Source of the DNA: an uncultured Clostridia bacterium
GTDB taxonomy: Bacteria; Bacillota; Clostridia; TANB77; CAG-508
Assembly (NCBI GenBank): GCA_947624365.1
Contig: CANQJY010000002.1
Coordinates: 1 to 36,720 of the forward strand
Direction of reading: 5' to 3'
DNA length: 36,720 nt
Shown: piece after piece, positions 11,304 to 34,295 of the stretch
Layout of the letters: each line of letters opens with the position of its first letter
Numbering within the stretch: the first letter of the stretch is position 1
The notes under the pieces: generated by a model
The model's database searches: none
What the model saw: the letters and a program-made list of their open reading frames with translations, nothing else
What the model was told of the DNA's origin: nothing
Made by a program: the position numbers and the translations under genes

Positions 11304-11345
11304 GGGATGAACTTTTTGAAAATTATATTTTAAAAAGTTCATCCC
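11304..11345. terminator. Bidirectional terminator between tex and the convergent response-regulator gene
   Basis: 14-bp stem gggatgaacttttt / aaaaagttcatccc. Confidence 0.7.
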
Positions 11346-11352
11346 TAATTAA

Positions 11353-12408
11353 TTACTTTTGCATAATTTTTTGAATAGAAGAAAAATCATTTTTAATAAT
11401 ATCTAAAAACAAATCATCAAGTTCTGGATCGAACTGTGTTCCTCGGCAACGCTCAAACTCAGAAATAACTTTTTCCATAGGGAGAGAATCACGGTAAGAA
11501 CGTTTAGAAGTCATTGCGTCAAAACTGTCAGCAATAGATGTAATTCTAGCTAAATATGGAATATCATTACCAGCTAAACGACTAGGGTAACCAGTTCCAT
11601 CATATTTCTCATGATGATGTTCAACCATTGGTAAAATATCCTTAAAAATAGAGGCATTTGACAAAATATGAACACCAATATTAGGGTGTTGCTTAATTTG
11701 AGAATATTCATCATCTGTTAATTTAGAATCTTTTTGTAAAATACTATCAGGTACCCCTATTTTTCCAATATCATGGAAAAGCCCCCCAAGATGTAAAAGT
11801 TTTAAATCATCATCAGAAAGACCTAGTTTTTTTCCAATTAAAACAGAGTACTCAGCAACTCTTTCAGAGTGGCCTCGAGTGTAAATATCTTTTGCCTCAA
11901 CAGTATAACGAAGAGTCTCAATACTTTCTAGATAAGCCTTCTCCAATTTTTCATAAGTATCTTTTAACTCGTTATTAATATTTTTTATTTCGTTCATTTG
12001 TTTAATAGACTTAATACCAGACTCTATTAACAATAACAATTGATCAAATTTATCACTTTTTTCGCAATATCCTTGTATATCCAGTCTTTTAATAGTTTCC
12101 AAAGGAGGTGCTAAATCTTTATGCCCTGTTAAAAGTAAAATATATAAATCTTTATTAAATTTACGAATTTCTTCAACTACCTGGTCACCATGGTAAGGTG
12201 TCATAATGAAATCTAAAATCATTAAATCAAAATGTTCATTTCTTACACGTTCAACGGCTTCCATAGGATCAGTAACACCTGTAAATTGGTATCCAGTTCT
12301 TTTTAAAAATATGGATAAAGAATCAACAATTCCCATTTCATCATCAACAGCAATAATTTTATATGAATTATTCTCGGCGTTTTCCAAATTTTGTAAGCCT
12401 TTTCTCAT
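11353..12408 (-). CDS. Response regulator with REC receiver and HD-GYP (c-di-GMP phosphodiesterase-type) output domain
   Basis: REC: IIAVDDE...DLMILDFIM...LLTGH. HD-GYP: HSERVAEY, HDIGK, HHEKYDGTGYP. No DNA-binding domain. GGGGG RBS. Confidence 0.9.
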   Translation of the reverse strand: MRKGLQNLENAENNSYKIIAVDDEMGIVDSLSIFLKRTGYQFTGVTDPMEAVERVRNEHFDLMILDFIMTPYHGDQVVEEIRKFNKDLYILLLTGHKDLAPPLETIKRLDIQGYCEKSDKFDQLLLLIESGIKSIKQMNEIKNINNELKDTYEKLEKAYLESIETLRYTVEAKDIYTRGHSERVAEYSVLIGKKLGLSDDDLKLLHLGGLFHDIGKIGVPDSILQKDSKLTDDEYSQIKQHPNIGVHILSNASIFKDILPMVEHHHEKYDGTGYPSRLAGNDIPYLARITSIADSFDAMTSKRSYRDSLPMEKVISEFERCRGTQFDPELDDLFLDIIKNDFSSIQKIMQK

Positions 12409-12435
12409 ATGCAGTCCCCCTTTAAAATTTTCTTT

Positions 12436-12464
12436 ATTATATTAGTAAAAAACAATAAATGCAA
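12436..12464 (-). promoter_or_regulatory. Possible internal sigma-A-type promoter for the response-regulator gene
   Basis: On the minus strand: TTGCAT (12464-12459), 17-bp spacer, TATAAT (12441-12436), in the 71-bp HK-RR gap. Confidence 0.4.
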
Positions 12465-12479
12465 GTATTTTGGACAAAT

Positions 12480-14285
12480 TTATTCAATTGGTAATATAAT
12501 ATTAAAAGTAGTACCAGTACCTTTTTTAGTTTCAAAAGTAATATCTCCGCCGAAATGAGCTTTAATAGTTGAATATGACATATATAAACCAAGTCCAGTT
12601 CCGTTTTTTCCTTTTGTTGTAATCATTTCTGTAAATATTTTATCTTTTACTTTATCAGGTAAACCTGGACCATAATCCTTGATAGAAATAGTTAAGTGAT
12701 TACTATCATCTTTATGAACAATTAAATCAATTGTTTGATTAGGCTTACCAGCATATGCCTGTATAGAATTAGAAATCATATTATTAATAACTTGAACTAA
12801 GCTATTAATGTCTCCATGTAATTGAGTGTTTTCAGGAACTTCTAAAGATGTATTTAAATACACAATAGCATTTTTTAATTCATGTCTCATTAAAATATCA
12901 ATACGTTTTACAAGCTCTTCTACATCAAAAGTAACAGTATCTGACTCTGACATAACAACGGCCTGGCCTTTAACAGCAGTAATAACATCAGACATATATT
13001 CTGAATATTCCTTTATTTTTTTAGTCCAAGTCATCATATCCCTAGCGATTTCGTGATGATCTTGAGAATTTACTTCAGGGTCATCAATTGAAGAATCATA
13101 TTCTTTTATCAAATCGGAAATTCCTTCAGTAGCACCAGCAATTGACATTATAGGAGTTTTTAAGTTATGAGCAATTCCACCAATTAATTGTCCAAGAGAA
13201 GCTAAACGTTCAGCTTCCATTAAAGTTTCTTGACTATCTTTTAGTCTTTGCATATCTGTTACATGTTGAGTAATATCTTTAAATAAAACTAAAGATCCAA
13301 TAAAAATTTTTTTATTATATAAAGGGCTAAGCTCTATATTAAAGTGTTTATCAATAGCAGAATCAAAAAACTCAATGCTACATGTTTTACCTGTTTTAAT
13401 AGCAGAATAAAAAGACTGTTTAAAATTCTCTATATTTTTTGTATCATGGAACAAATCAAAAATTTTCTTTTTACGAATAGATTGATTTTGCATTTGAAAA
13501 GTTTTAACAAATGTACCATTGTAATCTATAATAGATTCATCTGTATCAAGTACTAAATAGCTGTCTGACATAACATCCACAATACGCTGTAAAGCAATAG
13601 GGGACACATTAAGCAGACTAAATTTAAAAATTGCAAATCCATATAATAAAACCGTAATAGCAAAACTGATTGGAGTCAAAAATACATTCATACTAATTAT
13701 TTTTGTTGTTCCTAAAACATTAATGGCAATTGGTATTAAAGATCCAATCAACAATAAAATAGATTGAATAGAAAATAAACCAGAAGTCTTAAATGATGTA
13801 GTAAGTAATATAACCATACTTACAATAAACAAAGCATAAGTGTATATAGAATGTATATAAAAATATTGGCCATAAACAGTGTCTGATATTATAGAAGAAT
13901 ATTTTATATAAAATAAATGATGAAGATCATTAGTCCATAATATCAACAAAGTAATAATTGGTACAACAAACAAAAGTAGATAAGATTTCTGAAACTTGAT
14001 TTTTGTATTTTTAAATGTTAATGCTAAGAAGAAAAAAGCAACAGGCAAAAAGCAAGTACCAATATAAATAAAATATTCATAGTAAATAGGGTTTACCCCA
14101 AAAGTTTCAGACATAATACTCTGTAGTAATACCCCAATACTAATTAGTATAATACAACTTATTGTACAAAGAAAAGCTTTATGCAATTGTTTTAAAGGAC
14201 GTTGGCGTAGTACGTAAAGTACAAGTATAATAGACAAAACAATTGATATAATTAATAAAATAAAAGGGATTGTTACAATTTCCAT
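12480..14285 (-). CDS. Sensor histidine kinase: multi-pass (about 7 TM) N-terminal domain, PAS-like segment, HisKA, HATPase_c
   Basis: About 230 aa of hydrophobic helices, then the H-box GGIAHNLKTPI, an N-box NNMISNSIQA, and G-boxes DYGPGL and GTGLGL. The AGGAG RBS overlaps the NRPS stop codon. Confidence 0.9.
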   Translation of the reverse strand: MEIVTIPFILLIISIVLSIILVLYVLRQRPLKQLHKAFLCTISCIILISIGVLLQSIMSETFGVNPIYYEYFIYIGTCFLPVAFFFLALTFKNTKIKFQKSYLLLFVVPIITLLILWTNDLHHLFYIKYSSIISDTVYGQYFYIHSIYTYALFIVSMVILLTTSFKTSGLFSIQSILLLIGSLIPIAINVLGTTKIISMNVFLTPISFAITVLLYGFAIFKFSLLNVSPIALQRIVDVMSDSYLVLDTDESIIDYNGTFVKTFQMQNQSIRKKKIFDLFHDTKNIENFKQSFYSAIKTGKTCSIEFFDSAIDKHFNIELSPLYNKKIFIGSLVLFKDITQHVTDMQRLKDSQETLMEAERLASLGQLIGGIAHNLKTPIMSIAGATEGISDLIKEYDSSIDDPEVNSQDHHEIARDMMTWTKKIKEYSEYMSDVITAVKGQAVVMSESDTVTFDVEELVKRIDILMRHELKNAIVYLNTSLEVPENTQLHGDINSLVQVINNMISNSIQAYAGKPNQTIDLIVHKDDSNHLTISIKDYGPGLPDKVKDKIFTEMITTKGKNGTGLGLYMSYSTIKAHFGGDITFETKKGTGTTFNIILPIE

Positions 14286-14296
14286 AAAAAAACTCC

Positions 14297-17200
14297 TTAT
14301 AAAAATTTCATTCTTTTAAAATATTTTATATATTGTATTATATAATTTTTGTCAATATTTTTCCAGTAAAATCCGATAGATTGTAAAAATTTTTCAGAAA
14401 AAGTACTATCCAATCGAATTCTAGAGGTATATACCAACTGTTTCTGGCTATCCAAATCATGGATAATACCAGACAAAATTTGCTTTTTATCATCATCTTC
14501 TAATATTTCATTAATCAATTTTGTCATTTCTTCATTTGAAACAGGCAATATATTATATCCAAATTCAGTTAAAGTATCAGCAAACAATTGTAATGAAAGT
14601 AGTTTAGTATCATAGATATGTAAAACAGTACAATCACTAGTATAGCCAGTTAAACGAATAATAGCATCAGCACATAAATCAACAGGTGTTACTTCAACTT
14701 CATGTTGTAATGCATAAGCAGGAAATGCTCCTAATTTAACAAAAGATTGAATACGTTTTGCAAAAGCGTTTTCATCAATATTTCTTTGAAATCTACCATC
14801 ACGATAACGATTTGAAATATTACCAATACGCAAAATCATTGCATCTAAACCATCTAAAATAGCTTCTAACACAATACGTTCAGCCTTAAATTTAGTTATA
14901 GTATAAATACCTTTTAAATGTTGACCAACAAATAAATCTTTTTCACTAAAAATAACTTTATCATTTATATTTTCAGAAGTTTCTACAATGGCTTCTTCTT
15001 TTTCACCATTACCAGAAACACTAATTGTAGAAATATGGAAAAGCCTTTTATTAAATTCTTTACACCATGAAACAACATTAGCAGTGCCTAAAATATTTAT
15101 GTTTTCAAACAATTCTTTATTACCATAGTGTTTTACAATTGCACCAGCGTGAATTACAGTTGAAACTTCTTGTTTTAAAAGATTTGTATCTTCTTCAGAA
15201 AGAGATAGATTTTGTTCTGTAATATCACCTTCAATTACATGTATGCGAAAACTATATTGATCATAAAAAGCTTCACCAAAATAATATTGTAAAGTATTTT
15301 TCAATCTTTCATAAGGAATTATATTATCTTTTTTACGTATTAAGCAATAAATATCACCAGTTTTCCTTTTTAAAAATGAACCAATCAAATGAGCCCCAAC
15401 ATAGCCAGTACCACCAATTAAAAATACATTTCCAGTATCTACTTTTTTAATAGAATTCAAATATTCTTCAGAATTCTTTGAAAGTAATTCATCAAATTTT
15501 TGATAATTATAATTTTCAATATCACCTTTTTGTAAACGGTGTCTAGTTTTAGCAGACAATTGGTGAATAGTAGGAAAATTGAAAATATCAGCATATTCAA
15601 AATCAAAACCTTCACGTAAAGCATCAATTTGCATATTAATTGCCAAAATAGAATCTCCACCAATATCGAAGAAATTATCATAAATAGATATATCATCTAA
15701 ATGTAAAATACGTTTCCAAATATTCCATAATTTTTTCTCATTTGGTGTTTTTATTTCATCAATAATTTTTGCAACTTTACGCTCATTTATATCAGGAATT
15801 GGTAATGCTTTTCTATCAATCTTACGATTAATTGTATAAGGCATTTCTTCCAAACGGAAAATATAAGTAGGAACCATATATGCTGGTAAATTTTTTTTAA
15901 GAATATCTTTTACGTCACCTTCTGTAATATATGAATTTTCATCACAAACATAGTATCCACACAAAAATTCACGATCTTCAATACATACTTTATGAGCAAC
16001 ACTAGATATAACACCAGGAATTTGTTCCATAACACCTTCAATTTCACCAAGCTCTATACGCAATCCACGTAATTTAATTTGATTATCTATACGCCCTAAA
16101 CATTGAACTTTTCCATCAAAAGTCCATTTACCAATATCGCCAGATTTATACATTTTGCCAGTTCCAAAAGGATTATCAATAAATTTATCATGAGTCATAT
16201 CAGGTTTACCAAGATAACCAAGGCCAACTTGAATACCAGAAATATAAATTTCACCAACAACACCAATTGGAACAGGGCGAAGATATTTATCTAATATATG
16301 AATTTGCGTATTCAAAATAGGAGGGCCGATTGTAATACGATCTTCACCATTTAAATTTTGAACATTACAAAGTACAGTAATTTCACTAGGACCATAAATA
16401 TTGTAAATAGTAACATTATCAGATAATTCACGTAAATCTTTTACAAATTTTTCAGGTAAAGGTTCTCCACCAAAAACCATATGTTTGATTTGGGACAAAG
16501 CAGAAGGTGATACACGATTATCATAATTTATTTTCATTAAGCTAGGAGTTACAGTCATAACATCTCCACCATATTGTTTGATTAATTTATCTAGTAGGAT
16601 AGGATTTCTATGTTCTTCGTTATTTGCCATTAAAATACGTAACCCATGCCCTAAAGAAACTAAAATTTCATAAACAAAAATATCAAAAGGTGTAGAAGTA
16701 ACAGAAACTAAGCAATGTTCATTTCCATCTTTTAAATATTCTAAAACTTTACCCATTGCAATAACCATATTTGCAAGTCCAATCTGATGTAACATAACTC
16801 CTTTAGGCTTACCCGTAGAGCCAGAAGTATATATAACATAAGATAAATCCATAGAATTAACAGTTACATTTGGATTATTGAAATGCTTTAAATATATAGG
16901 GCTATCTAAATCAATTTCTATACAATGTTCTATATTTTTAACAAGTTTTTTTAAAGACTTTTGTACCAAAACATATTTTGCCTTACAATCTTTTAAATAA
17001 TATTTTGTACGTTCTATGGGATATGTAGGGTCAACATTCAAAAAGGCAGCTCCAGCTTTTAAAATTCCAAGCATACATACAATAGTTTCAAAAGAACGAT
17101 TAGTCATAATACACACAATATCATTTGGCTTAATTCCTTGTGAAATCAAATAATGAGCAAGCGAATTTGCCTTTTTATTTAATTCTTTATATGTTAAATT

Positions 17201-20200
17201 TTTTCCATCACAAATAATAGCAATATCTTCAGGATGTAGCATTACTTGATTCTCAAATATTTCAACAAATGAATTGTATTCAATATCACCAGCTGTATTA
17301 TTAAAAGATTGCAACAAATTATTTTCTTCTTCTGTTAAGGCAGGTATTTTATGCAAAGGAAGATCCATAAAAGAAGATAAATGTTGTAAAATATATAAAT
17401 AATGTTTATATAAACTGTCAATAGTTTCCTCTGCAAATAATGCAGTTTGATATTCAAATGAAATCTCTAAAGTAGAAGGATTAATTTCTACTGTTAAAGG
17501 AAATTTTGCTGTATGTGTATGAGCACCATATAATTCAACAGATTTGTTATTAAGAGAAATTTGTTCTACTTCTTCATTTTGATATGTAAATACCACATCA
17601 AAGACAGAAGAATTTGCAGGAACATTAATATCTTTTACAAAAGTATTATAAGGATAAGGCTGATGAGATAGACCATCTAAAACCGTTTCTTTTACTTGTT
17701 GTAACAAATCTAAAAAACTACAATCACTATTAATATCTATTGCCAAAACAACATTATTAACAAACATACCAATCATATTATTTAATTCTTTATGATAGCG
17801 AGACTCAATTGGAGAACCAATAATTAGAGTTTCTTGCCCAGTATATAAATATAGTAATAAATATAAAGCACTTAAAAATACCATATATTCAGAAACATGG
17901 TGATTAGAAGCTATATCAGAAATTGCATTAAATAAATCAGTATCAAATTTAAAAGTTAAGCGTTCTCCATCATATGATTTTTGATTTGTTACTGGATAAT
18001 CATAAGGTAAGTTAATAACAGGAATTGATAAATCTTTAAATTTATTTTTCCAATATTCTTGATAATCTAAAAATGCCTCAGAAGAAAACATATCATTTTC
18101 CCACATAGTATAATCTGTATAAGAGTATCTACTTTTATCTAATTCTTGACCTTGATATAATTTGCAAAAATCAGATAGCAAAATATATAAAGAAGTACCA
18201 TCTAATATAATATGATGAGAATCCAGTAATATTAAAGTAGAAGAATTAATATAATGTACTTCTACACGTAACAATGGAGCAAAGTCTAAATCAAATATTT
18301 TAGGAAAATTATCAACCAACTCAGAAATATATTCAGGAGTTGAAATACCATCATCATAATAAGGAATGTCTAAGTTTACATGTTTTAAAATAAACTGTCT
18401 TACTTCTCCATTTTCTATTTTAAAATAAGTACGGAAAATAGGATGTCTTTCTACTAATTCTGAAAAAGCTTCACGGATTTTTTGAATATCTAATAAATCA
18501 TTAATTAAAATACCACCACTTACATGATAAACAAGAGAATCACCAGCCATTTTTGTTGCATAATAAATTCTTTCTTGTGCTGAAGAAAGTGGATAAGAAG
18601 GCATAGGCGTTGCTTTCTTAAGTTTTACTATACAATCTTTCTTGTCCTTTCCACTTAAAAATATTGCCAAAGATTGAATAGTAGGATATTGGAATAAGTC
18701 AGTAATAGAAATAGCCTTTCCTGAAAATCCTTCTATCTCTAAGCAGAAACGAATTCCTTGCAAAGAGTCCATACCTAAAGTAAAGAAATTTTCATCAATA
18801 GAAATTTGTTTTAATCCTAATAAATGGCATAAAGAGTCATGCAATTTTGCTTGCATAGAATTTGTGGGACCAACAAAATCCCTACGGAAATCTGCAAAAT
18901 CAGGCAAAGTAGATATATCAATTTTACCATTTTTTGTAACAGGAAATTTATCTAATAATATAAAATGTGAAGGTATCATATAGTAAGGTAAAAGTTTTGA
19001 AAGTTCCAATTTTAAATTTTCAATAGACAAAGAATTATCTTCTAATATTACATAAGCACAAAGACAATCTATCTTCTCAATAGATTTCACAAGAATAAGT
19101 GCATTTTTAACACCTGAAATATTTTTTAATCTATTTGTAATTTCTTGTAATTCAATACGATGGCCATGTAATTTAATTTGAGAATCATTTCTACCCATAA
19201 AGCAAAGATACCCCTTTTTATCCCAACGAACAATATCACCGGTTCTATAAAAAAGGGAAGAGCCAAATCCAGGTAATAATATATAACTTTTTTCATTCAT
19301 TGAAACATTATGCAAATAACCTTTCGAAACATTTTCTCCACTAATACATAATTCTCCAGGGTATCCAATAGGCATAATATTTCCAAAGTGATTTATAACT
19401 ACAATTATATTATTTTTTAAAGGATATCCAATAGGAACAATCCCATCAGAATCATCTTCTTTAGTATATTTATAAAATGTAGAGCAAATAGTAGCCTCAG
19501 TAGGGCCATAGCCATTTACAATTTCTATGTTTTCATTTAAATTAAAATATTTACGCAAATCTGCTTTTTTTATTGCTTCTACACCAACTAACATTTTATT
19601 TAATGCAATTGTTGAACAATGTGAATATACATAGTTATATACATCATTTAAAATATTTGGAGGAATATATAAAAAGGTAATTTGTTCTTCTTCCAAAAGT
19701 TCGCATAAAAGAGGAATATCTGTTAATGTGTTTTGAGGATATAAAACTAAAGTAGCTCCAAAACATAATGGAGTGAATAGTTCACACACACTCACATCAA
19801 ATGAAATATTTGTACTAGATAAACAAACATCTTCATTTGAAAATCCATTTTCAAAACAATTAGAAAAAGTATATAAAAAATTAACTAAATTACGATGTGT
19901 AAGCATAACTCCTTTTGGCCTTCCAGTAGAACCAGAAGTATAAATTACATAGCATAAACGATTACTAGCAATAGACACATGTAAAGAGTCAGAAGAATAA
20001 TCATCTAAAGAAATATCAGTTGCACGTGAAACAACCAAATTTTTAATATCATTTAACTTGAATAATTGATCTGTTAAAAATAGTTTAGCATGACTATCAG
20101 TTAAAATATATCGAATTCTATCTTCAGGATAATCAAAAGACATTGGTAAATAAGCAGCACCCAATTTTAAAATTGCTAAAATACTAATAACAAAGAAATC

Positions 20201-21739
20201 ATTTTTATGCATACATACTCCAACAATATCATTTGACTTTACACCTTGATTAGAAAGGTAATGTGCTAATTGATTTGCTTTTTTATCTAATTGACTATAA
20301 GTAAGTCGTGTATCTTGATAAACACATGCTATACTATCTGGATGAAGTCTTACCTGTTTTTGAAAAAGGTCTATAATAGTGCAATCCAAAGGACAATCTA
20401 AAAAGCCAGATTGAAGATTTTGAGTCAATTGTAATCTTTCTTTATCTGTTATAAATTGCACATTTTGAAGTAATATATCAGGCATAGATACAACCTGTTC
20501 AATCATAGAACATAAACGATTGTGCCAAACCATTACATCAGCTTGAGTATATTTAGAATTAACGAAATCATAATCTACTTCCAAACTACCAATATCATTT
20601 AAATCATACAAGTGAATACTAATATCATTCATACAATTACCAGTAAAAGCCCAATTTAACTCACAATCCCCATTATCATGAGACAAAGTTTTTGTAATTT
20701 GATAAGAAACAGCAATATTATATAAATGAGAAATAGAATTATCTTTATTACCCAAATCTTCCATCAATTGAGAATAAGGATATTTCTGATGGCGCAAAAT
20801 AGAGGTAAAAGCAGAGCGATTTGCTTCTAAAAATTCTGAAAAGCGCATATTTTTAAAAACATGAGTACGAAAAGGAACAGTAGTTACAAACATACCAGTA
20901 GAACGTTTTTCCTTAAAATTTGCGCGATTTAATATTGGTGTACCAATAAGTACATCATCAACATTGCCAGCATTTGCTAAAAATAGTGAAATTACTGACA
21001 TAAAAAATACATAATTAGAAACACGAAAGTCTGAACATAATTTATTGATACGTTCCATAATTTGTTTGTCCAAACGAAATGTAAGCCTAGAACCATCAGG
21101 AGAATCCACAAAATTATCTGATAAAGAAGGAATACTAGTAGGAGTAGGTGGATCCTGTAGATAAGACATCCAAAAAGTTTTATCTTTCTGAAAATTTTTG
21201 CTATCCAAATATTTTTGTTCTGCTAATATATGTTCAGTATATGAAACAGTATCAGAAACATAATCTTTATTAGATAATAGACAATGATAAATTTTTACAA
21301 TTTCCTGAATAGTGATACCCATAGACCACGAATCAGAAATAATATGATGTAAATTTAAAACAACTGCTACATATCCATTAGGAAATACAGCAAGTTTAAA
21401 AGTAAAAAGACGAGAATCAAGCAATGAAAACGTCTCTTTTACAAATTCTTCTTCAAAAGACATGAGATATTCAGTAGAAGGTAGATTTACAACAGAAATA
21501 TCATCTACTCCATATATATCATCAGCAGCAATATATTGGAAAGGTTCACTATCATTTACAGTTAGGCGAATACGAAAACTATCATTTTCTTGTACAAGAC
21601 GTACAATAGCCTGTTTTAACAAAGGAATATCAACTTTTTCTTTTATTAAACCAGAACCGCAAATATTACAAGCATTTGAATCTTTTAAAAATTGCTGTGA
21701 AAACCAAATATTTAATTGAGGATTTGTTAATTTAAACAT
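14297..21739 (-). CDS. Dimodular nonribosomal peptide synthetase, C-A-T-C-A-T-R (terminal thioester reductase)
   Basis: Motifs in order, numbered from the ORF-track Met at 21751. C1: HHIISDS (135-141). A1: YTSGSTGRPKG (604-614), NGYGPTE, YRTGD, NGKID. T1: LGMDS (Ser996). C2: HHIILDG (1179-1185). A2: YTSGSTGKPKG (1641-1651), NIYGPSE, YKSGD. T2: IGGDS (Ser2034). R: GGTGYVG (2113-2119) and YTITK (2283-2287). A GGAG 6 nt upstream favours Met5 (21739) as the start. Confidence 0.95.
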   Translation of the reverse strand: MFKLTNPQLNIWFSQQFLKDSNACNICGSGLIKEKVDIPLLKQAIVRLVQENDSFRIRLTVNDSEPFQYIAADDIYGVDDISVVNLPSTEYLMSFEEEFVKETFSLLDSRLFTFKLAVFPNGYVAVVLNLHHIISDSWSMGITIQEIVKIYHCLLSNKDYVSDTVSYTEHILAEQKYLDSKNFQKDKTFWMSYLQDPPTPTSIPSLSDNFVDSPDGSRLTFRLDKQIMERINKLCSDFRVSNYVFFMSVISLFLANAGNVDDVLIGTPILNRANFKEKRSTGMFVTTVPFRTHVFKNMRFSEFLEANRSAFTSILRHQKYPYSQLMEDLGNKDNSISHLYNIAVSYQITKTLSHDNGDCELNWAFTGNCMNDISIHLYDLNDIGSLEVDYDFVNSKYTQADVMVWHNRLCSMIEQVVSMPDILLQNVQFITDKERLQLTQNLQSGFLDCPLDCTIIDLFQKQVRLHPDSIACVYQDTRLTYSQLDKKANQLAHYLSNQGVKSNDIVGVCMHKNDFFVISILAILKLGAAYLPMSFDYPEDRIRYILTDSHAKLFLTDQLFKLNDIKNLVVSRATDISLDDYSSDSLHVSIASNRLCYVIYTSGSTGRPKGVMLTHRNLVNFLYTFSNCFENGFSNEDVCLSSTNISFDVSVCELFTPLCFGATLVLYPQNTLTDIPLLCELLEEEQITFLYIPPNILNDVYNYVYSHCSTIALNKMLVGVEAIKKADLRKYFNLNENIEIVNGYGPTEATICSTFYKYTKEDDSDGIVPIGYPLKNNIIVVINHFGNIMPIGYPGELCISGENVSKGYLHNVSMNEKSYILLPGFGSSLFYRTGDIVRWDKKGYLCFMGRNDSQIKLHGHRIELQEITNRLKNISGVKNALILVKSIEKIDCLCAYVILEDNSLSIENLKLELSKLLPYYMIPSHFILLDKFPVTKNGKIDISTLPDFADFRRDFVGPTNSMQAKLHDSLCHLLGLKQISIDENFFTLGMDSLQGIRFCLEIEGFSGKAISITDLFQYPTIQSLAIFLSGKDKKDCIVKLKKATPMPSYPLSSAQERIYYATKMAGDSLVYHVSGGILINDLLDIQKIREAFSELVERHPIFRTYFKIENGEVRQFILKHVNLDIPYYDDGISTPEYISELVDNFPKIFDLDFAPLLRVEVHYINSSTLILLDSHHIILDGTSLYILLSDFCKLYQGQELDKSRYSYTDYTMWENDMFSSEAFLDYQEYWKNKFKDLSIPVINLPYDYPVTNQKSYDGERLTFKFDTDLFNAISDIASNHHVSEYMVFLSALYLLLYLYTGQETLIIGSPIESRYHKELNNMIGMFVNNVVLAIDINSDCSFLDLLQQVKETVLDGLSHQPYPYNTFVKDINVPANSSVFDVVFTYQNEEVEQISLNNKSVELYGAHTHTAKFPLTVEINPSTLEISFEYQTALFAEETIDSLYKHYLYILQHLSSFMDLPLHKIPALTEEENNLLQSFNNTAGDIEYNSFVEIFENQVMLHPEDIAIICDGKNLTYKELNKKANSLAHYLISQGIKPNDIVCIMTNRSFETIVCMLGILKAGAAFLNVDPTYPIERTKYYLKDCKAKYVLVQKSLKKLVKNIEHCIEIDLDSPIYLKHFNNPNVTVNSMDLSYVIYTSGSTGKPKGVMLHQIGLANMVIAMGKVLEYLKDGNEHCLVSVTSTPFDIFVYEILVSLGHGLRILMANNEEHRNPILLDKLIKQYGGDVMTVTPSLMKINYDNRVSPSALSQIKHMVFGGEPLPEKFVKDLRELSDNVTIYNIYGPSEITVLCNVQNLNGEDRITIGPPILNTQIHILDKYLRPVPIGVVGEIYISGIQVGLGYLGKPDMTHDKFIDNPFGTGKMYKSGDIGKWTFDGKVQCLGRIDNQIKLRGLRIELGEIEGVMEQIPGVISSVAHKVCIEDREFLCGYYVCDENSYITEGDVKDILKKNLPAYMVPTYIFRLEEMPYTINRKIDRKALPIPDINERKVAKIIDEIKTPNEKKLWNIWKRILHLDDISIYDNFFDIGGDSILAINMQIDALREGFDFEYADIFNFPTIHQLSAKTRHRLQKGDIENYNYQKFDELLSKNSEEYLNSIKKVDTGNVFLIGGTGYVGAHLIGSFLKRKTGDIYCLIRKKDNIIPYERLKNTLQYYFGEAFYDQYSFRIHVIEGDITEQNLSLSEEDTNLLKQEVSTVIHAGAIVKHYGNKELFENINILGTANVVSWCKEFNKRLFHISTISVSGNGEKEEAIVETSENINDKVIFSEKDLFVGQHLKGIYTITKFKAERIVLEAILDGLDAMILRIGNISNRYRDGRFQRNIDENAFAKRIQSFVKLGAFPAYALQHEVEVTPVDLCADAIIRLTGYTSDCTVLHIYDTKLLSLQLFADTLTEFGYNILPVSNEEMTKLINEILEDDDKKQILSGIIHDLDSQKQLVYTSRIRLDSTFSEKFLQSIGFYWKNIDKNYIIQYIKYFKRMKFL

Positions 21740-21771
21740 CTTTTTCTCCATTTACACATCTTTGTCAATTT

Positions 21772-21845
21772 TGTCCATTTTGGGACGGTCCTTTTTTGGA
21801 CATTTTGAAACAAATGTCCAAAAAAGGACCGTCCCAAAATGGACA
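21772..21845. repeat. Perfect palindrome (31-bp core arms, extendable to 34 bp) in the NRPS leader, possibly a MITE-like element
   Basis: GTCCATTTTGGGACGGTCCTTTTTTGGACAT (21773-21803) is the exact reverse complement of 21814-21844. Each arm is two tandem GTCC-N6-GGAC units. It is flanked by the direct repeat ACACATCTTT (21754-21763 and 21848-21857). Confidence 0.9.
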
Positions 21846-21866
21846 TGACACATCTTTATTAAGGCA

Positions 21867-21895
21867 ATTATATAAATAACACAAAAAAAATGCAA
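21867..21895 (-). promoter_or_regulatory. Sigma-A-type promoter for the NRPS-HK-RR operon
   Basis: On the minus strand: TTGCAT (21895-21890), 17-bp spacer, TATAAT (21872-21867). The predicted TSS near 21860 puts the palindrome inside the 5' leader. Confidence 0.5.
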
Positions 21896-21966
21896 TAGTT
21901 TAGAAAATAAATTTCATAAAATGTCGAAATTTATCAAATTTTGCGATGAAAAGTTAACGGAAACAA

Positions 21967-21995
21967 TTGAAAAACACTACATTTTATGTTAATAT
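21967..21995 (+). promoter_or_regulatory. Divergent sigma-A-type promoter for the Rpn-like gene
   Basis: TTGAAA (21967-21972), 17-bp spacer, extended -10 TGtTAATAT (21987-21995). Confidence 0.45.
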
Positions 21996-22027
21996 ATGCA
22001 TACCATATTGACCAAAGGAGAAGTACA

Positions 22028-22678
22028 ATGAAAATATTTACATACGAAGAATATATAGAATATAAAAAGCAAGTAAAAATATATGCAGATAAACATTTTA
22101 AACTTAGCATAGAAAAACAAATTTTTTTAGAAATGTATAATGGAAAAGAAGAATTAAAGACCGGTGAAATATACGAGTATTGGAAAAATTCAAAAAGAAA
22201 AATAAATAATATACAATTACAAAAAAAATTAGAAAATAAAACAAAAATAATTCCTATTATCAATAATGCCGTAAAAGATAATTTACACCTTACACCAGAG
22301 ATGCTACAAATGTATAAATCTAGCTATATAAATACAATGTTTCAAAATGGCCAAATAAGTATTATATATCGAATTATTGGAACTAATATATTTTTTTTAA
22401 TTACGCATCAAGAGAAAATTGATTATACTATGCCAGCAAGAATTCTTAGTTATATTATAGGAGTTATAGATAAAGCATTAAAAAATGTTGAAATTAGAAG
22501 ACATATGAAAATCCCAACAGTTATACCTATTATAGTATATACGGGAAACGAACAATGGAATATGGAACAATTTATAAAAAATAGTCAAAAAAAGCTATAC
22601 CCATTTCAAAAAATAGGTTTAGGAGAATATAATATTTTAAAAATGTTTAAAAATAAAAATAATTGGGAACACTTGTAA
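22028..22678 (+). CDS. Rpn/YhgA-like PD-(D/E)XK family protein (putative transposase/recombination-promoting nuclease family), truncated and probably catalytically degenerate
   Basis: YKSSYIN...ISIIYRIIGTNIFFLITHQEKIDYTMPARILSY...IPTVIPIIVYTGNEQW matches the clostridial Rpn core pattern (xDIVYK...LIEHQSxIDYSMPxRxxxY...PxVIPIVLYTGxxxW). AAAGGAG RBS before the ATG at 22028. Confidence 0.6.
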   Translation: MKIFTYEEYIEYKKQVKIYADKHFKLSIEKQIFLEMYNGKEELKTGEIYEYWKNSKRKINNIQLQKKLENKTKIIPIINNAVKDNLHLTPEMLQMYKSSYINTMFQNGQISIIYRIIGTNIFFLITHQEKIDYTMPARILSYIIGVIDKALKNVEIRRHMKIPTVIPIIVYTGNEQWNMEQFIKNSQKKLYPFQKIGLGEYNILKMFKNKNNWEHL

Positions 22679-29063: not shown

Positions 29064-29097
29064 TGTCCATTTTGGGACGGTACTTTTTTGGACATTT
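29064..29097 (+). repeat. Solo copy of the 31-bp palindrome arm seen at 21773-21803 (33/34 identity)
   Basis: tGTCCATTTTGGGACGGTaCTTTTTTGGACATtt starts 1 nt after the murF TAA. There is a single C>A difference at 29082. Confidence 0.9.
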
Positions 29098-30190: not shown

Positions 30191-30249
30191 AAAAAGTGGG
30201 CATGCAAAAGACAAGCTATGTATAAATCATAGGAGTGAGGTGTCAAAAA

Positions 30250-30774
30250 ATGGAGATGTGGCAAGGAAAGCACTTTAGTATCACAGATCCTAAAGATGTA
30301 AAAACAGTAATATATCAAGTAAACAAAACAGAAAAAGAATTTTTAGAAAATGCACCAAAATATACAATACAAAGATTAGACTTTACTCAAGAACTTAGAG
30401 GTGAAAATACTAGAAAAACTTTTTATGTTGATAACCCATCAGAAGATGAAGATCATTTAGTAATATTATCTTTTGGAAAAGATAGAGTAGTAGTAAATAT
30501 GGCATTATTAGAAGATGACAAAATATCTATTTCAAAAAAACCAATGCCATTAAAATTTAACAGTATCTATAATGAGAAAGAAACAGAGTATAAAGATTTT
30601 CAATATACACCAAATTTAAAGAGACCAATATGCATTATTGACCCAGAGACTACAGAAGAAGTAGAGCCAATGCTTTATTTTGATGAAAACACAAATGAAG
30701 TAAAAGGCAAATGTAAATTAAAACCATATAAATCTTATTTTGCCTTTGAAATCAGGGACAAAAAGGATGTTTAA
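30250..30774 (+). CDS. Hypothetical protein (about 174 aa), no family recognised
   Basis: Long ORF with coding-like composition. AGGAGTGAGG RBS about 9 nt before the ATG at 30250. Tightly followed by the next ORF. Confidence 0.6.
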   Translation: MEMWQGKHFSITDPKDVKTVIYQVNKTEKEFLENAPKYTIQRLDFTQELRGENTRKTFYVDNPSEDEDHLVILSFGKDRVVVNMALLEDDKISISKKPMPLKFNSIYNEKETEYKDFQYTPNLKRPICIIDPETTEEVEPMLYFDENTNEVKGKCKLKPYKSYFAFEIRDKKDV

Positions 30775-30788
30775 GGAGGAAAACAAAA

Positions 30789-31094
30789 ATGGGAAATCCA
30801 GGAGTAGCAAGCACAAATAATGCTTTTGAAGTTAATTTTATAATGACAACAGGACTAGAACTAGGTAAAAAAATACAAACAGTAGGTGAAGGATCAAAAG
30901 ATTCTAATATAGGACCAAAAATTGATACAGAAGTTTCTAAACATGAATGGGGATATGATCCTGAAACAAAAAAAGGAATTAGAGTTAGAAATTTAAATGG
31001 AAGAAAAGTACAAGAAGAAGGAAATGCTAAAATAATGAAACAAGAATATGATATTCGTATTCAAAAAGAAAAAAGCAAAGAAAATGAAAGATAG
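30789..31094 (+). CDS. Hypothetical protein (101 aa), no family recognised
   Basis: Strong AAGGAGG RBS 8 nt before the ATG. Charged, Lys/Glu-rich C-terminus. Confidence 0.55.
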   Translation: MGNPGVASTNNAFEVNFIMTTGLELGKKIQTVGEGSKDSNIGPKIDTEVSKHEWGYDPETKKGIRVRNLNGRKVQEEGNAKIMKQEYDIRIQKEKSKENER

Positions 31095-31122
31095 AATAAA
31101 CCAAAGATAGTAGGTGAATTGT

Positions 31123-33109
31123 ATGAACTACAAGATACAAGGAGCAATTAAAAGAAATAAAAAAACTTTTATAATATGTGCAATACTATGGGTATTTTTA
31201 ACCATAGTATTTGTTTCGCCTGTATCACTTAGTATATTCCAAGCAAAGCAGGGAGCCAAATTAGGAAATATAACAATCTTTCAAGCAATTGGAGAAAACT
31301 TCATGCACCCATTTGTATCATTCGGAAAAATATTTGAGCAAGGAGCAGTTGGAGACTTTACATCCTTTCTTGTTGGATTTACAATATTTTATTTAATATT
31401 CTTTTTTATTGGATTTGTAAAATCAGCACCTAAAAATGAATATTCAGACATTGAGCATGGATCTAGTGACTGGAGCCAAAGAGGAGAACAATACGAAATT
31501 TTAAATAAAAACAAAGGAATAATTTTAGCAGAAAACAATTATCTACCAGTAGACAAGAGAGGAAATGTAAACGTATTAGTAGTTGGACGGATCAGGTTCT
31601 GGTAAATCAGCATCATATTCTATACCAAATGCATACCAAATGTTAGGCTCATATGTATTTACAGACCCAAAAGGAGAATTATATGACAGAACAGCAGGAT
31701 ATTTAAGAGATCATGGATATCAAATAAAAGTATTAAATTTAGTAAGACCACAATATAGTGATGGATATAACCCACTAAGGCATATCAATTCAGAAATTGA
31801 TGTTGATGTAATTGCAAATACAATTATTAGAGGACAAAAATCAGAAGGAAGCACAGCGGAGCCATTCTGGGATGATTCAGCAGAGATGTTATTAAAAGCA
31901 TTAATATATTATTTACTAGCAGTTAGACCAGAAGAAGAGCAAAACCTAGCCAGTTGTGCAGAACTTGTTAGAGCAGCAAATAATAAAGGTGGAAGTAATT
32001 TATTAACAGAACTAATCAGTGTATTACCATATGACCATCCAGCAAGAATGTACTACAAATCAATAGAAATTGCACCAGAAAAAACATATAGCTCTATTTT
32101 AAGTACATTACAATCTAAATTAGGAAAATTTGACTCAAAAGAAATTGCAGAATTAACATCAACAGACACAATAAACTTTGAGGATATAGGAAACAGAAAA
32201 ACAGCAGTATATGTTATTTCATCAGATACTCATACAGCATATGATTTCTTATTAACAATATTCTTCTCTCAAATGATACAACAACTATATGACTATGCCG
32301 ACAGGAACGGAGGAGCATTAAAAATTCAAACATTCTTTATACTAGATGAGTTTGCCAATATTGGTAAAATACCAGACTTTGACAAGAAAATATCAACATC
32401 TAGAAGTAGAAAAATATCATTTAGTGTTATTTTACAAAACGTAGACCAATTAGAAGCAGTATATGAAAAGTCATATGAAACCATTATGGGTAACTGTGAC
32501 ACGCACTTATTTTTAGGAAGCAACTCATACAAAACAGTAGAATATTTCTCAAAGCAACTAGGAGAAAAAACAATAGAAAGAGATAGTATTTCAATCAACA
32601 AAGATAGGCAAAACTGGAGAACAGGAAAAAGTGTATCTGATCAGGTCATGGCAAGAGCATTAATGACACCAGACGAATTACGTAGAATGGATATAGATGA
32701 CTGCATAATATTTGTAAAAGGATTAAAACCAATAAAAACAAAAAAATTCTACTATTTCAAAAAGCCAATGGCAAAAGAATTAGCAGAACATGAAATTAGC
32801 CATAATGATATCGGAGAAATTGAAAGAGGAACTTGGAGAAAATACAACCCATACAATCCATATGTACCAGAAGAAGAGCAAGAAAAAAATGCAGAAAATC
32901 TAAAAATAGAATCTTTAGATGACCTGTTTGAAGATGTAGAAGAACCAAAAACATTACAGGAACAACAAACACAAACAAGTCCAATAGGAGTTTTAGAAAA
33001 GACAGAAGAAGATGCACCAATGTTACCACAAGAAGATACATATGATTTACAAAAAGAATTAGAAGCAAAATTTGACGAATTATTTGGGCCATTAGATGAT
33101 AATGATTAA
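31123..33109 (+). pseudogene. VirD4/TraG-type type IV coupling protein (T4CP), interrupted by a +1 frameshift in the Walker A region
   Basis: ORFs 31114-31605 and 31583-33109 are adjacent pieces. The first carries TM helices, EHGSSDWS and NVLVVG. The second carries GSGSGKS, FILDEFANIG, SRSRKIS, LQNVDQL and an acidic tail. Deleting C31588 restores NVLVVGGSGSGKS. Confidence 0.8.
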
Positions 33110-33138
33110 AAGATATGTTAAGCACATATCTTTTTTTG
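33108..33138 (+). terminator. Rho-independent terminator after the T4CP gene
   Basis: aagatatgt / acatatctt stem, 5-nt loop, T-tract. Confidence 0.7.
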
Positions 33139-33167
33139 TTGACAAACTTCCGTTTGTATGATATAAG
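33139..33167 (+). promoter_or_regulatory. Sigma-A-type promoter for the SbcD/SbcC-like pair
   Basis: TTGACA (33139-33144), 17-bp spacer, extended -10 TGaTATAAG (33159-33167). Confidence 0.45.
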
Positions 33168-33196
33168 GATAATATAAATAAAAAAGGAGAATAATT

Positions 33197-34282
33197 ATGA
33201 AATTTGTTCATATTGCAGACATGCATTTTGACAGCCCATTTATAAATTTATCAAACAAAGAAATCTTAGGAGATACACGTAGATTAGATCAAAGAAAAAT
33301 ATTAAAAAAAGTAATTACATATATTCAAGAACACCAAATTCCAATATTATTAATTTCAGGAGATTTATATGAGCATAAATATATTAAGCAATCAACAATA
33401 CAGTATATAAACAATGAATTTAAAGAGATTCCAAATACACAAATATTTATTAGTCCAGGAAATCACGACCCATATTTACAAAATTCATATTATGCACAAT
33501 ATGAATGGAACAAAAATGTACATATTTTTAATTCAAAATTTGAAAAAATCAGTTTACAAGATGCAGATATTTATGGATATGGATTTAATGACTTTTATTG
33601 TACAAATTGTGGCATAGAGGAATTAAAAATAGAAAATCCAGAAAAGCTAAATATAGCAATTCTACATGGTTCAATAAATTCATCTAACACAGAAGATAGA
33701 CAATACAATCCAATTCCAAGAAAAACATTGGAAAATAAAGGATTTGACTATGTTGCAATGGGGCATATACATAAACCATCATATAAAGATGAGCCAAATC
33801 AAAGAATAGTATATCCAGGCTCTTGCATTTCCCTAGGATTTGACGAATTAGGAGAACACGGAATGATTGTAGGAGATGTAACAAAACAAGAAATTAAATT
33901 AGAATTAATTTCATTAGACGAAAAAGCATTTATAGAAAAAGAAGTTGATGTTACAAACATTTTGTCAAAAGAAGAATTAATAGAAAAAATAAATCAACAA
34001 GAATATTCAAATACAGAATTTATAAAAATAATATTAACAGGAACACGACACTTTGAAATTGATACATATAAGATATATCAATTTATAGAAAGTGAACAAA
34101 TAATCAAAATAAAAGATAAAACAAAACCATATTATGATTTACAAAAAATAAAAAATGATAGCACCTTGAAAGGAATGTTTGCAGGAAAAATGTTAGAAAG
34201 AATGCAAAATAAGGAATTATCAGAAACAGAAAAAGAAGTATTAGAAAAGGCCATTGAAATTGCATTTGATGCACTTCAATAG
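33197..34282 (+). CDS. Metallophosphoesterase, SbcD/Mre11-like DNA repair exonuclease (YhaO-like)
   Basis: MKFVHIADMHFD, SGDLYE, GNHDP, HG and GHIH calcineurin-like phosphoesterase motifs. AAGGAG RBS. Confidence 0.85.
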   Translation: MKFVHIADMHFDSPFINLSNKEILGDTRRLDQRKILKKVITYIQEHQIPILLISGDLYEHKYIKQSTIQYINNEFKEIPNTQIFISPGNHDPYLQNSYYAQYEWNKNVHIFNSKFEKISLQDADIYGYGFNDFYCTNCGIEELKIENPEKLNIAILHGSINSSNTEDRQYNPIPRKTLENKGFDYVAMGHIHKPSYKDEPNQRIVYPGSCISLGFDELGEHGMIVGDVTKQEIKLELISLDEKAFIEKEVDVTNILSKEELIEKINQQEYSNTEFIKIILTGTRHFEIDTYKIYQFIESEQIIKIKDKTKPYYDLQKIKNDSTLKGMFAGKMLERMQNKELSETEKEVLEKAIEIAFDALQ

Positions 34283-34295
34283 AAGGGAGATAATT

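Follow-up and report, generated by a model that had tools for sequence, protein, structure and literature searches.

Locus and gene content

The DNA analysed here (the window) is a stretch of 36,720 nucleotides (nt) from an uncultured Clostridia bacterium (contig CANQJY010000002.1 of assembly GCA_947624365.1) with a G+C content of 24–31%. It carries a gene for a non-ribosomal peptide synthetase (NRPS) followed by genes for a sensor histidine kinase (HK) and a response regulator (RR). This report deals with the conservation of these three genes as a linked unit and with the manner in which the sensor half of the HK follows the synthetase from species to species. Genes and domains of the window were assigned by Pfam domain search. 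The three genes are co-directional.

14297-21751, minus strand: NRPS, 2,484 aa (Condensation twice, AMP-binding twice, PP-binding twice, NAD_binding_4)
12480-14285, minus strand: HK, 601 aa (HisKA_7TM, PAS, HisKA, HATPase_c)
11353-12408, minus strand: RR, 351 aa (Response_reg and HD_5/HD)

The domains of the NRPS are arranged as C-A-T-C-A-T-R (C, condensation; A, adenylation; T, carrier; R, reductase). An alternative start, ATG 21739, is preceded by GGAG at a distance of 7 nt and gives a protein of 2,480 aa. Both C domains contain HHxxxD, the carrier serines lie in GMDS and GGDS, the A10 lysines are present and the R domain contains GGTGYVG and YTITK. The make-up is that of a dipeptide-aldehyde synthetase: the two A-T modules are separated by a C domain, an NAD(P)H reductase closes the chain, and the motifs of the reductase are intact. 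Judged by these motifs the NRPS looks functional, and its predicted product is an (N-acyl-)dipeptide aldehyde freed by reductive release. The first C domain matched PDB sequences of mixed C-domain types.

The HK consists of seven membrane helices (residues 1–230; 7TM), a PAS domain (231–345) and a core of DHp and ATPase domains (346–601). Its H-box, GGIAHNLKTP, is unchanged throughout the alignments, and no REC or HPt domain was found by Pfam. The sensor shows seven hydrophobic segments with K/R-rich loops at 27–36 and 91–102; hydropathy and the positive-inside pattern indicate an N-out/C-in topology, by which the PAS domain is predicted to be cytoplasmic. The outer loops are at most 22 residues long, and the sensor is, on this predicted topology, of the intramembrane type found in receptors of small hydrophobic signals. 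Within the sensor, conservation is highest in WTNDLHHLFY, where helix 4 ends; the least conserved parts of the HK are residues 1–50 and the core of the PAS domain. The solved kinase nearest to the HK is the PAS-kinase ThkA (3a0r); among stand-alone REC proteins, the ThkA partner TrrA is one of the best matches to the RR.

In the REC domain of the RR, residues D22, D23, D66, T94 and K117 are intact and invariant in 73 orthologues, with D66 as the predicted phospho-acceptor. The HD-GYP residues (H180, H212-D213, H241, H265-H266, E267, G271, G273-Y274-P275 and D294) are likewise invariant in the 73 orthologues, the motif HHEKYDGTGYP is intact and the Pfam HD_5 model scores 127 bits against a cut-off of 27.2 bits. 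Pfam detected no DNA-binding domain, and the description of the RR in an earlier note on this DNA as a complete HD-GYP protein lacking such a domain holds. The nearest solved HD-GYP proteins are V-cGAP3 (5z7c, E = 5.6e-43) and then PmGH (4mcw, E = 1.2e-40); the first is specific for 3'3'-cGAMP and the second is an enzyme acting on cyclic di-GMP (c-di-GMP). The glutamate which we take to bind the third metal in PmGH aligns with a tyrosine in the window RR. The substrate of the RR would be a cyclic dinucleotide, either c-di-GMP or 3'3'-cGAMP, with the link to c-di-GMP drawn from family membership.

The features of a two-component system are found on both sides: a His box and a GHKL ATPase in the HK, and an acidic pocket, Asp, Thr and Lys in the RR. 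The two genes are also coupled genetically in the two clades of loci described below, being adjacent in 54/80 loci of clade 1 and in 64/64 of clade 2. The HK and RR would accordingly form a pairing of cognate type, between which phosphotransfer may be expected.

Conservation of the locus in clade 1

The clade of the window (clade 1) was surveyed by scanning an alignment of the HK against one genome per species, which yielded at least 569 species with an HK relative. The figures given for clade 1 rest on the best 80 of these at least 569 species-level loci, which were searched with the window proteins. The 80 loci come from metagenome-assembled genomes (MAGs) or assemblies that carry the label uncultured Clostridia; their sources are the guts of human, rabbit, mouse and ruminant, and 'Clostridium sp. 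CAG:389' is among them.

Many full-length relatives of the HK share 58–83% identity with it. In five such relatives (60–76% identity) the NRPS, HK and RR were found together in 5/5, even where the flanks had changed or the RR lay on the opposite strand. In 76/76 loci with at least 3 kb of upstream DNA, an NRPS of about 2,480 aa is encoded on the strand of the HK and ends no more than 400 nt ahead of it. The gap between the two genes has a median of 12 nt, and the reading frames overlap in 12 of 79 related loci. Identity to the window falls to 33–38% for the NRPS and to 52–60% for the HK across these loci, and lies at 68–88% for the RR (one outlier at 61%) and 74–93% for Tex, the product of the gene downstream of the RR in the window. 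The adjacency of NRPS and HK persists though the flanking genes change. In clade 1 the NRPS and HK are, as judged from these junctions, an invariant and translationally coupled unit.

The position of the RR gene varied among the 80 loci as follows.

Adjacent to HK, co-directional: 50/80
Adjacent to HK, inverted: 4/80
Displaced by about 0.7-8 kb: 15/80 (12 co-directional, 3 inverted)
Absent within at least 4 kb: 8/80
Undeterminable, contig end too near: 3/80

At no clade 1 locus was the HK–RR gap shorter than 33 nt. Where the RR was missing, the genes downstream of the HK encoded Bax1-I, MecA, a type IV secretion system (T4SS) coupling protein or CobW, and no other REC gene was found near the HK. 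The RR of clade 1 is thus best described from its predicted promoter and position as a separately promoted gene which is usually, but not always, beside the NRPS–HK pair.

Inversion of the RR relative to the HK, with its own promoter kept, was seen in several independent lineages (L001/L010, at 11870-12931; L007/L008; and L033, L034, L038, L049, L065 and L069). L001/L010 also show a frame-shifted NRPS and a split tex, which may be MAG assembly errors or decay. The NRPS frame of L047 and L079 runs on without a stop for about 3,300 aa, and NRPS similarity reaches almost to the start of the available DNA (position 17–30), which suggests a larger, perhaps three-module, synthetase before the same kinase.

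A second clade and a lineage without the synthetase

The HK sensor (residues 1–345) was searched against 1.84 billion representative proteins, giving 154 clusters at E ≤ 1e-30 and 5,748 at E ≤ 1e-10, with top matches mostly of 575–630 aa. A second clade (clade 2) was reached via the relatives of a remote representative (25% identity). In three genomes of this clade, namely the cultured Zongyangia hominis (Oscillospiraceae; JACRTC010000001.1, L090; PMC8140505), an Oscillospiraceae MAG and GCA_902363445.1, an NRPS of the order C-A-T-C-A-T-R is followed after a gap of 3–27 nt by the HK, the RR and genes for an acyl-AMP ligase, a carrier protein (ACP) and a phosphopantetheinyl transferase (PPTase). 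In these three genomes, which have called genes, the RR overlaps the HK by 4 nt and is of the form REC-DUF3369-HD-GYP, and the flanks of the three loci are mutually unrelated. Identity to the window is 27–29% for the NRPS, 34–36% for the HK, 48–53% for the REC domain and 41–50% for the HD-GYP domain.

A metagenome scan with an alignment of the clade 2 kinases returned 80 loci. At the informative ones the NRPS abuts the HK (45/45), the RR abuts the HK (64/64) and the ligase comes next (47/47), and the order NRPS-HK-RR-acyl-AMP ligase-ACP-PPTase was kept without exception, the genes forming a tightly packed block in a single direction. In GCA_902363445.1 (L092, 553-17625) the six-gene block and a serine recombinase gene lie between the fragments for the C-terminal and N-terminal parts of FeoB; a block with its recombinase inside a split feoB reads as a single mobile island, which suggests that about 15 kb was integrated into feoB and moved as one piece.

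The ligase, ACP and PPTase genes follow the RR throughout clade 2 (L090–L092, L094–L173), and none is found near the cluster of the window. Together with the N-terminal C domain of the synthetase, they suggest that the peptide is N-acylated. Two forms of RR occur in clade 2: one of about 500 aa, in which DUF3369 separates REC from HD-GYP, and a shorter one of about 350–390 aa like that of the window.

HK and REC-HD-GYP genes that overlap by 20–26 nt were also found at two loci of an NRPS-less lineage (L089, 6691-9841, and L093, 10001-13235). Their context is conserved, with TsaD, ABC-F, TetR, SpoIIM, GntR and the S component of an energy-coupling factor riboflavin transporter on one side and a phosphotransferase-system EIIC on the other. 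The overlap in this lineage marks HK and RR as a true pair; it also means that the link to the NRPS is not universal in the wider HisKA_7TM family.

These surveys bear on the earlier note, which had treated NRPS, HK and RR as a linked unit and had proposed to examine synteny in relatives. The linkage is conserved in both clades and is not due to chance. Co-occurrence with the NRPS was constant for the HK; for the HD-GYP regulator it was constant in clade 2 and not in clade 1. The arrangement that the note had named as a sign of accidental adjacency, an HK–RR pair at this position in relatives lacking the NRPS, was seen solely in the different, deeper lineage just described and at another chromosomal position, and the adjacency is not thereby rendered accidental.

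Junctions, promoters and leader

The NRPS stop codon, TAA, occupies 14299-14297; it is overlapped by AGGAG (14297-14293), after which come seven T and the ATG of the HK at 14285. The NRPS–HK gap is therefore 11 nt, and the HK–RR gap is 71 nt. The following elements were located at and around the junctions.

21867-21895, minus strand: NRPS–HK promoter (TTGCAT 21895-21890, 17-nt spacer, TATAAT 21872-21867)
21772-21845, no strand assigned: leader palindrome of 74 nt, perfect 34+34 nt with a 6-nt spacer, between the NRPS promoter and start
14293-14297, minus strand: HK ribosome-binding site AGGAG, overlapping the NRPS stop codon
12436-12464, minus strand: RR promoter (TTGCAT 12464-12459, 17-nt spacer, TATAAT 12441-12436)
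11304-11345, no strand assigned: terminal hairpin with a 14-bp stem between the convergent RR and tex genes (-20.1 kcal/mol, z = -6.3)

The hexamers and their spacing are identical upstream of the NRPS and upstream of the RR. A generic promoter scan of the window gave 64 matches against 78 expected, which is not above chance in such AT-rich DNA, and it overlooked both elements because TTGCAT fits only three of the six consensus bases. As a generic scan has no power in AT-rich DNA, the promoters were judged by conservation across species. An element TTG(A/C)(T/A)T-N17-TATAAT is found 25–45 nt before the RR start in 63/74 loci, and it is also retained where the RR is inverted or displaced. In the NRPS leaders a TTG-N17-TATAAT-like element was seen in most of 72 upstream regions, mostly about 35–60 nt before the ATG (inspected by eye and not tallied); the window element aligns with those of the relatives, the window leader being longer owing to the palindrome. 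Both elements are credible because their position and sequence are conserved in relatives.

On folding against shuffled sequences the two junctions gave z = +0.7 and -1.2, no better than shuffled, whereas none of 200 shuffles folded as well as the hairpin at 11304-11345, which is likely to be a bidirectional terminator. The earlier note had given the HK start with the 11-nt gap and the AGGAG over the stop codon, the lack of a hairpin at either junction, the strong hairpin before tex and the TTGCAT-N17-TATAAT element both upstream of the NRPS and in the 71-nt gap, and all of these were confirmed. Its description of the genes as operonic stands for the tight NRPS–HK junction and for clade 2, where the RR overlaps the HK; it does not extend to the RR of clade 1, which has its own promoter and at some loci is inverted, displaced or absent. 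A further match, TGGAAA-N17-TATAAT (10/12), lies at 14337-14365 on the minus strand inside the 3' end of the NRPS gene, some 50 nt upstream of the HK start codon. An internal HK promoter could lie here, though matches of this kind are no commoner than chance in this DNA.

The RNA hairpin formed by the leader palindrome, a feature that the earlier note does not mention, has a folding energy of -66.5 kcal/mol (z = -11.9). Its 34-nt unit, TGTCCATTTTGGGACGGTCCTTTTTTGGACATTT, occurs three times in the window: two copies form the inverted pair in the NRPS leader and the third (29064-29097) is single, has one mismatch and directly follows the stop of a Mur-ligase gene. The palindrome was not found in the NRPS leaders of 88 related loci, where only two unrelated matches to GGGACGGTCC occurred elsewhere; a metagenome scan for the unit gave no match, and Rfam gave only generic hairpin models on the palindrome, all below threshold. 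A role as conserved operator was ruled out, given the leaders of relatives without the palindrome and the third unit after an unrelated gene; the same two observations suggest a small palindromic repeat that is dispersed and particular to this genome. The stem of 34 bp that it would form in the leader RNA could have a substantial effect on NRPS expression. Feedback through a c-di-GMP riboswitch, or through some other RNA element of known type, in the leader of the NRPS was considered and set aside, as an Rfam run at gathering thresholds on the window gave tRNA only; a permissive run on 21700-22000 gave only sub-threshold hairpin matches to miRNA models.

Co-variation of the sensor with the synthetase

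Pairwise protein distances were calculated over 40 loci with intact NRPS, HK, RR and Tex, Tex serving for comparison with the host lineage.

Tex: mean distance 0.18; r with NRPS 0.32; r with Tex 1.00
RR: mean distance 0.23; r with NRPS 0.37; r with Tex 0.56
HK core (346-601): mean distance 0.28; r with NRPS 0.43; r with Tex 0.69
HK 7TM (1-230): mean distance 0.51; r with NRPS 0.85; r with Tex 0.29
HK PAS (231-345): mean distance 0.54; r with NRPS 0.70; r with Tex 0.39
NRPS: mean distance 0.57; r with NRPS 1.00; r with Tex 0.32

The kinase is thus a mosaic, the sensor half of which varies with the NRPS; its core and the RR follow the housekeeping gene tex. In some pairs of loci at a Tex distance of 0.02–0.04 the 7TM distance is only 0.01–0.07. 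Between L021 and L030/L017 the distances are 0.03–0.04 for Tex, 0.05 for the RR and 0.04–0.05 for the HK core, against 0.47 for the 7TM region and 0.41 for the NRPS. In terms of identity, sister species with Tex about 96%, HK core about 95% and RR about 95% identical have sensors that are only 53% identical. The sensor contrast is not a mere effect of rate, because pairs with nearly equal Tex differ by 0.01–0.07 in one case and by 0.47 in the other. A single Tex clade (average-linkage distance below 0.12) holds six NRPS/sensor types, and one NRPS type is distributed over four Tex clades. No pair combined an NRPS distance below 0.30 with a 7TM distance above 0.30.

The boundary within the kinase was located by comparing L021 with L030, in which HK identity is 30–80% up to residue 330 and 87–100% (mostly 97–100%) from residue 331. 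In nine other pairs of close species the identity also rises near the PAS/DHp junction, less sharply in some. At the DNA level the L021–L030 comparison falls into blocks: 75–86% identity in C1, 46–64% in A1-T1-C2, 84–88% in part of A2, 61–76% in T2-R, 58–67% in the HK 7TM region, 81–86% in the HK core, 81–84% in the RR and about 90% in tex.

With Tex controlled for, the best partner of the 7TM region among the NRPS domains is the abutting R domain (partial r = 0.81). For the PAS domain it is the farthest domain, C1 (partial r = 0.75), with the adjacent R domain at 0.51. These unlike partners leave room for the PAS domain and the helices to read different parts of the product, as they might do. 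The HK core and the RR co-vary in clade 1 with a partial r of 0.61 when Tex is controlled for. Clade 1, and clade 1 only, shows the pattern of a pherotype locus, in which the signal genes and the sensor half are hypervariable and the kinase core and RR are conserved.

The sensor was also compared with the predicted peptide. Pocket codes of the A domains were read at eight motif-anchored positions (235, 236, 239, 299, 301, 322, 330 and 331 in PheA numbering). The partial codes of the window are DVC.LG.GIC (DVCLGGIC) for A1 and DIY.VG.IVL (DIYVGIVL) for A2. At other loci the pockets include codes that we take, by the Stachelhaus code, to be Gly-like (DIL.LG.IW), Thr-like (DFW.IGMVH), Val-like (DAF.LG.TF) and Pro-like (DVQ.IAHVA); several further pockets fit no code that we recognise. 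L030/L017, with a Gly-like A1, and L021, with a Thr-like A1, have A2 in common, are nearly identical in Tex, HK core and RR, and possess unlike sensors. For pairs with a Tex distance of up to 0.15, distances were compared between loci with the same and with different pocket residues.

HK 7TM: same pocket residues 0.25; different 0.54
HK core: same pocket residues 0.21; different 0.24
RR: same pocket residues 0.19; different 0.20

A partial Mantel test of 7TM distance against code distance, with Tex controlled for, gave r = 0.70. The suggestion in the earlier note that the sensor may perceive the NRPS product gains support from these comparisons, as the sensor half co-varies with the NRPS and its pocket residues and the kinase core and RR do not. 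An HtrA-like protease, encoded upstream of the NRPS, was tried as a co-evolving target or immunity gene and found no support: in the 10 loci that could be used, its distances follow those of Tex (r = 0.87) rather than those of the sensor (0.61).

Comparison with known systems

In the rpf cluster of Xanthomonas a synthase, a sensor kinase and the REC-HD-GYP regulator RpfG are encoded together (PMC6337780). The window resembles it in that a gene for signal synthesis is clustered with a membrane sensor kinase and in that the RR has the order REC-HD-GYP; with an HD-GYP output instead of a DNA-binding one, perception of a signal would become turnover of a cyclic dinucleotide. It differs in that the synthase is a 2,480-aa NRPS with reductive release, whereas RpfF is an enoyl-CoA hydratase making a fatty acid, in that the HK is of the HisKA_7TM-PAS type and lacks the hybrid build of RpfC (PMC8895600), and in that the hosts are Gram-positive gut Clostridia. 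The window locus would, to go by its domains, work like Rpf without being a member of it, having an NRPS as synthase and an HK without REC or HPt. Diversification of the pherotype kind is not known to us for rpf.

The loci known for such diversification are the pherotype loci, among them Bacillus comQXP and streptococcal comCDE. In staphylococcal agr the hypervariable block agrB-agrD-agrC comprises the signal genes together with the kinase's sensor half, and the kinase domain and regulator are conserved (PMC10482373). The window locus shares with agr the co-transcription, here predicted, of signal genes with a polytopic kinase and the hypervariable block, which ends here in a step at about HK residue 330. 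It departs from agr and comQXP in three respects: the signal would be made non-ribosomally, in contrast to the ribosomal peptides that AgrB or ComQ process; the HK is not of the HPK10/LytTR-partner type; and the diversification is between species. Since the RR lacks a DNA-binding domain, no direct autoinduction loop is visible, unlike in agr. The locus is a member of neither the rpf nor the agr family.

The synthetase itself resembles in architecture known clusters of gut Clostridia. The dipeptide-aldehyde NRPS clusters (Fischbach group) and the rup cluster of Ruminococcus bromii, which makes ruminopeptin (Schneider and Balskus), have two modules and a terminal reductase. These clusters release dipeptide aldehydes, N-acylated in ruminopeptin, pyrazinones being isolated when the amine is free (PMC12327764). 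They have been interpreted as sources of inhibitors against proteases of the host or of competitors. The C-A-T-C-A-T-R synthetase of the window, from a gut-commensal Clostridia host, is likened to them by architecture and not by orthology. The acyl-AMP ligase, ACP and PPTase of clade 2 are those expected for N-acylation, as in ruminopeptin.

Autoinducer synthases encoded beside a polytopic receptor kinase are also represented by CqsA/CqsS and LqsA/LqsS. The enzyme chemistry and the receptor family of these systems, and of Pseudomonas Pvf, are unlike those of the window. For Pvf we know of no receptor kinase encoded alongside, and the abstract of PMC10194917 names none. Synthase-adjacent two-component quorum sensing is a recognised class (PMC8895600), and Pvf shows that a reductase-terminated NRPS can produce a signalling molecule (PMC10194917). 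In the literature, the primary dipeptide-aldehyde study aside, neither an NRPS cluster with an embedded HisKA_7TM kinase and HD-GYP protein nor a co-diversification of NRPS and receptor was found described. The earlier note knew of no described NRPS-aldehyde cluster with this wiring. For NRPS clusters no match was found; the wiring as such has a precedent in Xanthomonas rpf (PMC6337780), with another synthase and sensor. Synthase-linked two-component signalling with pherotype-like diversification is a known kind of system, of which the NRPS version would be new.

Proposed mechanism and alternatives

From the gene anatomy, the conserved NRPS–HK junction, the cognate-type pairing, the intact catalytic residues and the sensor–synthetase co-variation, which are observed, we infer the product, the recognition of a ligand, the phosphotransfer, the nucleotide substrate and the downstream phenotypes. 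The reading that we favour, at about even probability, is that the locus is a signal-and-receptor cassette, in which a signal made by the NRPS is read by its cognate receptor kinase and the output is an HD-GYP protein as in Rpf. The promoter at 21867-21895, of the sigma-A type, would give a bicistronic NRPS–HK mRNA in which HK translation is coupled to NRPS termination. The NRPS, with its putative starter C domain, two A-T modules and reductase, would make an (N-acyl-)dipeptide aldehyde or a derivative of it, to be recognised by the membrane-embedded 7TM region of the co-encoded kinase, possibly together with the PAS domain. Sensor specificity and peptide would diversify jointly, giving pherotype-like variants. 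The HK core would phosphorylate the RR, which has a promoter of its own, at D66, and the RR would alter the hydrolysis of c-di-GMP or 3'3'-cGAMP instead of binding DNA. That such cassettes serve cell–cell recognition among gut Clostridia, with an aldehyde signal, a 7TM receptor, a REC-HD-GYP output and mutually private 'dialects' like the agr groups, is a more tentative proposal, to which we give somewhat less than an even chance.

Several observations weigh against the cassette. The RR is absent from the neighbourhood of the HK in 8 clade 1 loci, and in the NRPS-less lineage the HK–RR pair stands without an NRPS within 6.7–10 kb (L089, L093). Upstream of the NRPS neither a riboswitch nor a conserved operator was found, so that its promoter shows no evident route for feedback. 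The mosaic of sensor against core is not seen in clade 2, where all cluster genes co-vary (r = 0.60–0.94); for that reason, and because a host marker is lacking, clade 2 does not lend itself to replication of the result. The species pairs are not independent, so that p-values are nominal. A weak point is that no ORF with RxGG[DE]EF (GGDEF-type) was found in 1.83 Mb of locus DNA, weak because only the locus flanks were sampled. A further point is the physical adjacency of NRPS and sensor, owing to which their co-variation could stem from recombination tracts alone: the partial correlation between 7TM and pocket code drops from 0.70 to 0.21 once the adjacent R domain is also controlled for.

An alternative to the cassette is that the HK senses another cue, from host, diet or envelope, and is transcribed with the NRPS only to bring about joint expression of peptide production and second-messenger signalling. 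Its co-variation with the NRPS would then be a by-product of linkage: recombination tracts replacing the NRPS would take along the neighbouring 5' half of the HK gene. The drop on R-domain control, the abutting R domain as the tightest partner of the 7TM region, the block-wise exchange read from the L021–L030 DNA mosaic and the existence of HK–RR pairs without an NRPS all agree with this alternative. Linkage alone, however, leaves the PAS/DHp boundary in every close pair examined unexplained, and it does not lead one to expect that the PAS domain tracks the farthest NRPS domain best; kinase core, RR and tex are equally linked physically, yet behave otherwise. Nor was there any pair in which the NRPS type was kept and the sensor changed, or the converse, and the adjacency has outlasted moves to unrelated contexts and the separation into two deep clades. 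We regard this explanation as unlikely. The kinase might instead monitor the product of its own cell, the aldehyde or an acylated membrane intermediate, as a checkpoint or for self-protection through the HD-GYP protein and not for communication; envelope, export and growth state are examples of what the cell would then adjust. Co-variation data cannot separate intracellular from extracellular sensing; conservation within the HK is lowest in the PAS domain, cytoplasmic by topology; at the examined loci of the clade of the window no dedicated exporter is conserved; and peptide aldehydes are reactive protease inhibitors (PMC12327764). Self-monitoring gives no obvious reason for many types among sister species, six of them within one Tex clade, and the most variable segments are the first two helices and the regions facing the outer loops, not the PAS domain alone; we consider it improbable.

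It is highly improbable, in our judgement, that the adjacency has no function or that the RR is an unrelated resident beside tex and not the partner of the HK. The clade 1 RR does have its own promoter, tracks Tex more than the NRPS, often lies beside tex and is missing from 8 relocated NRPS–HK loci. Against this stand the adjacency counts for NRPS and HK in both clades, the constant and overlapping RR of clade 2, the persistence of the RR close by despite altered orientation or flanks, the lack of any other REC gene near the HK and the co-variation of HK core and RR beyond Tex. An accidental adjacency is, on these counts, effectively excluded.

Among the biosynthetic clusters of gut Clostridia in humans and animals, those for reductase-terminated dipeptide NRPSs are some of the most widespread. 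The signal-and-receptor cassette offers a concrete alternative to the protease-inhibitor view of them, namely that their products are self-recognised signals of many specificity types. If this is true, the peptide-aldehyde NRPS family would be primarily a device for communication or kin discrimination, rather than or besides a source of inhibitors of host proteases, and the locus would be the first two-component system with a dedicated, co-encoded receptor kinase for an NRPS product. Pherotype-style diversification would then extend beyond ribosomal peptides, and a gut natural-product family would be tied to second-messenger control in organisms that are almost wholly uncultured. The hypothesis is directly testable, since the cluster is present in the cultured Z. 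hominis.

Neighbouring genes

Housekeeping genes flank the three genes of the locus. Downstream of the RR the window flank is convergent and encodes Tex, followed by an ABC-F ATPase, a PGA_cap protein and MetK. On the upstream side of the NRPS the genes encode a YhgA-like PD-(D/E)XK 'transposase', a protease of the HtrA type and a peptidase of the M23 family. In many relatives the first counterpart of a window gene detected upstream of the NRPS is htrA; in the window the YhgA/Rpn-like PD-(D/E)XK gene (21986-22678, plus strand) stands between the two. YhgA/Rpn-like genes were also found beside the NRPS–HK pair in the relocated loci L007 (1532-2299) and L083 (8764-9483) and may bear on cassette exchange.

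The right end of the window (30235-36167) contains genes for a T4SS coupling protein (31583-33109), a metallophosphoesterase and an AAA ATPase, and several small ORFs without a Pfam match. It may be a piece of a conjugative or defence element. A T4SS coupling-protein gene similar to that of the window directly follows the HK in L068 (11827-13350).

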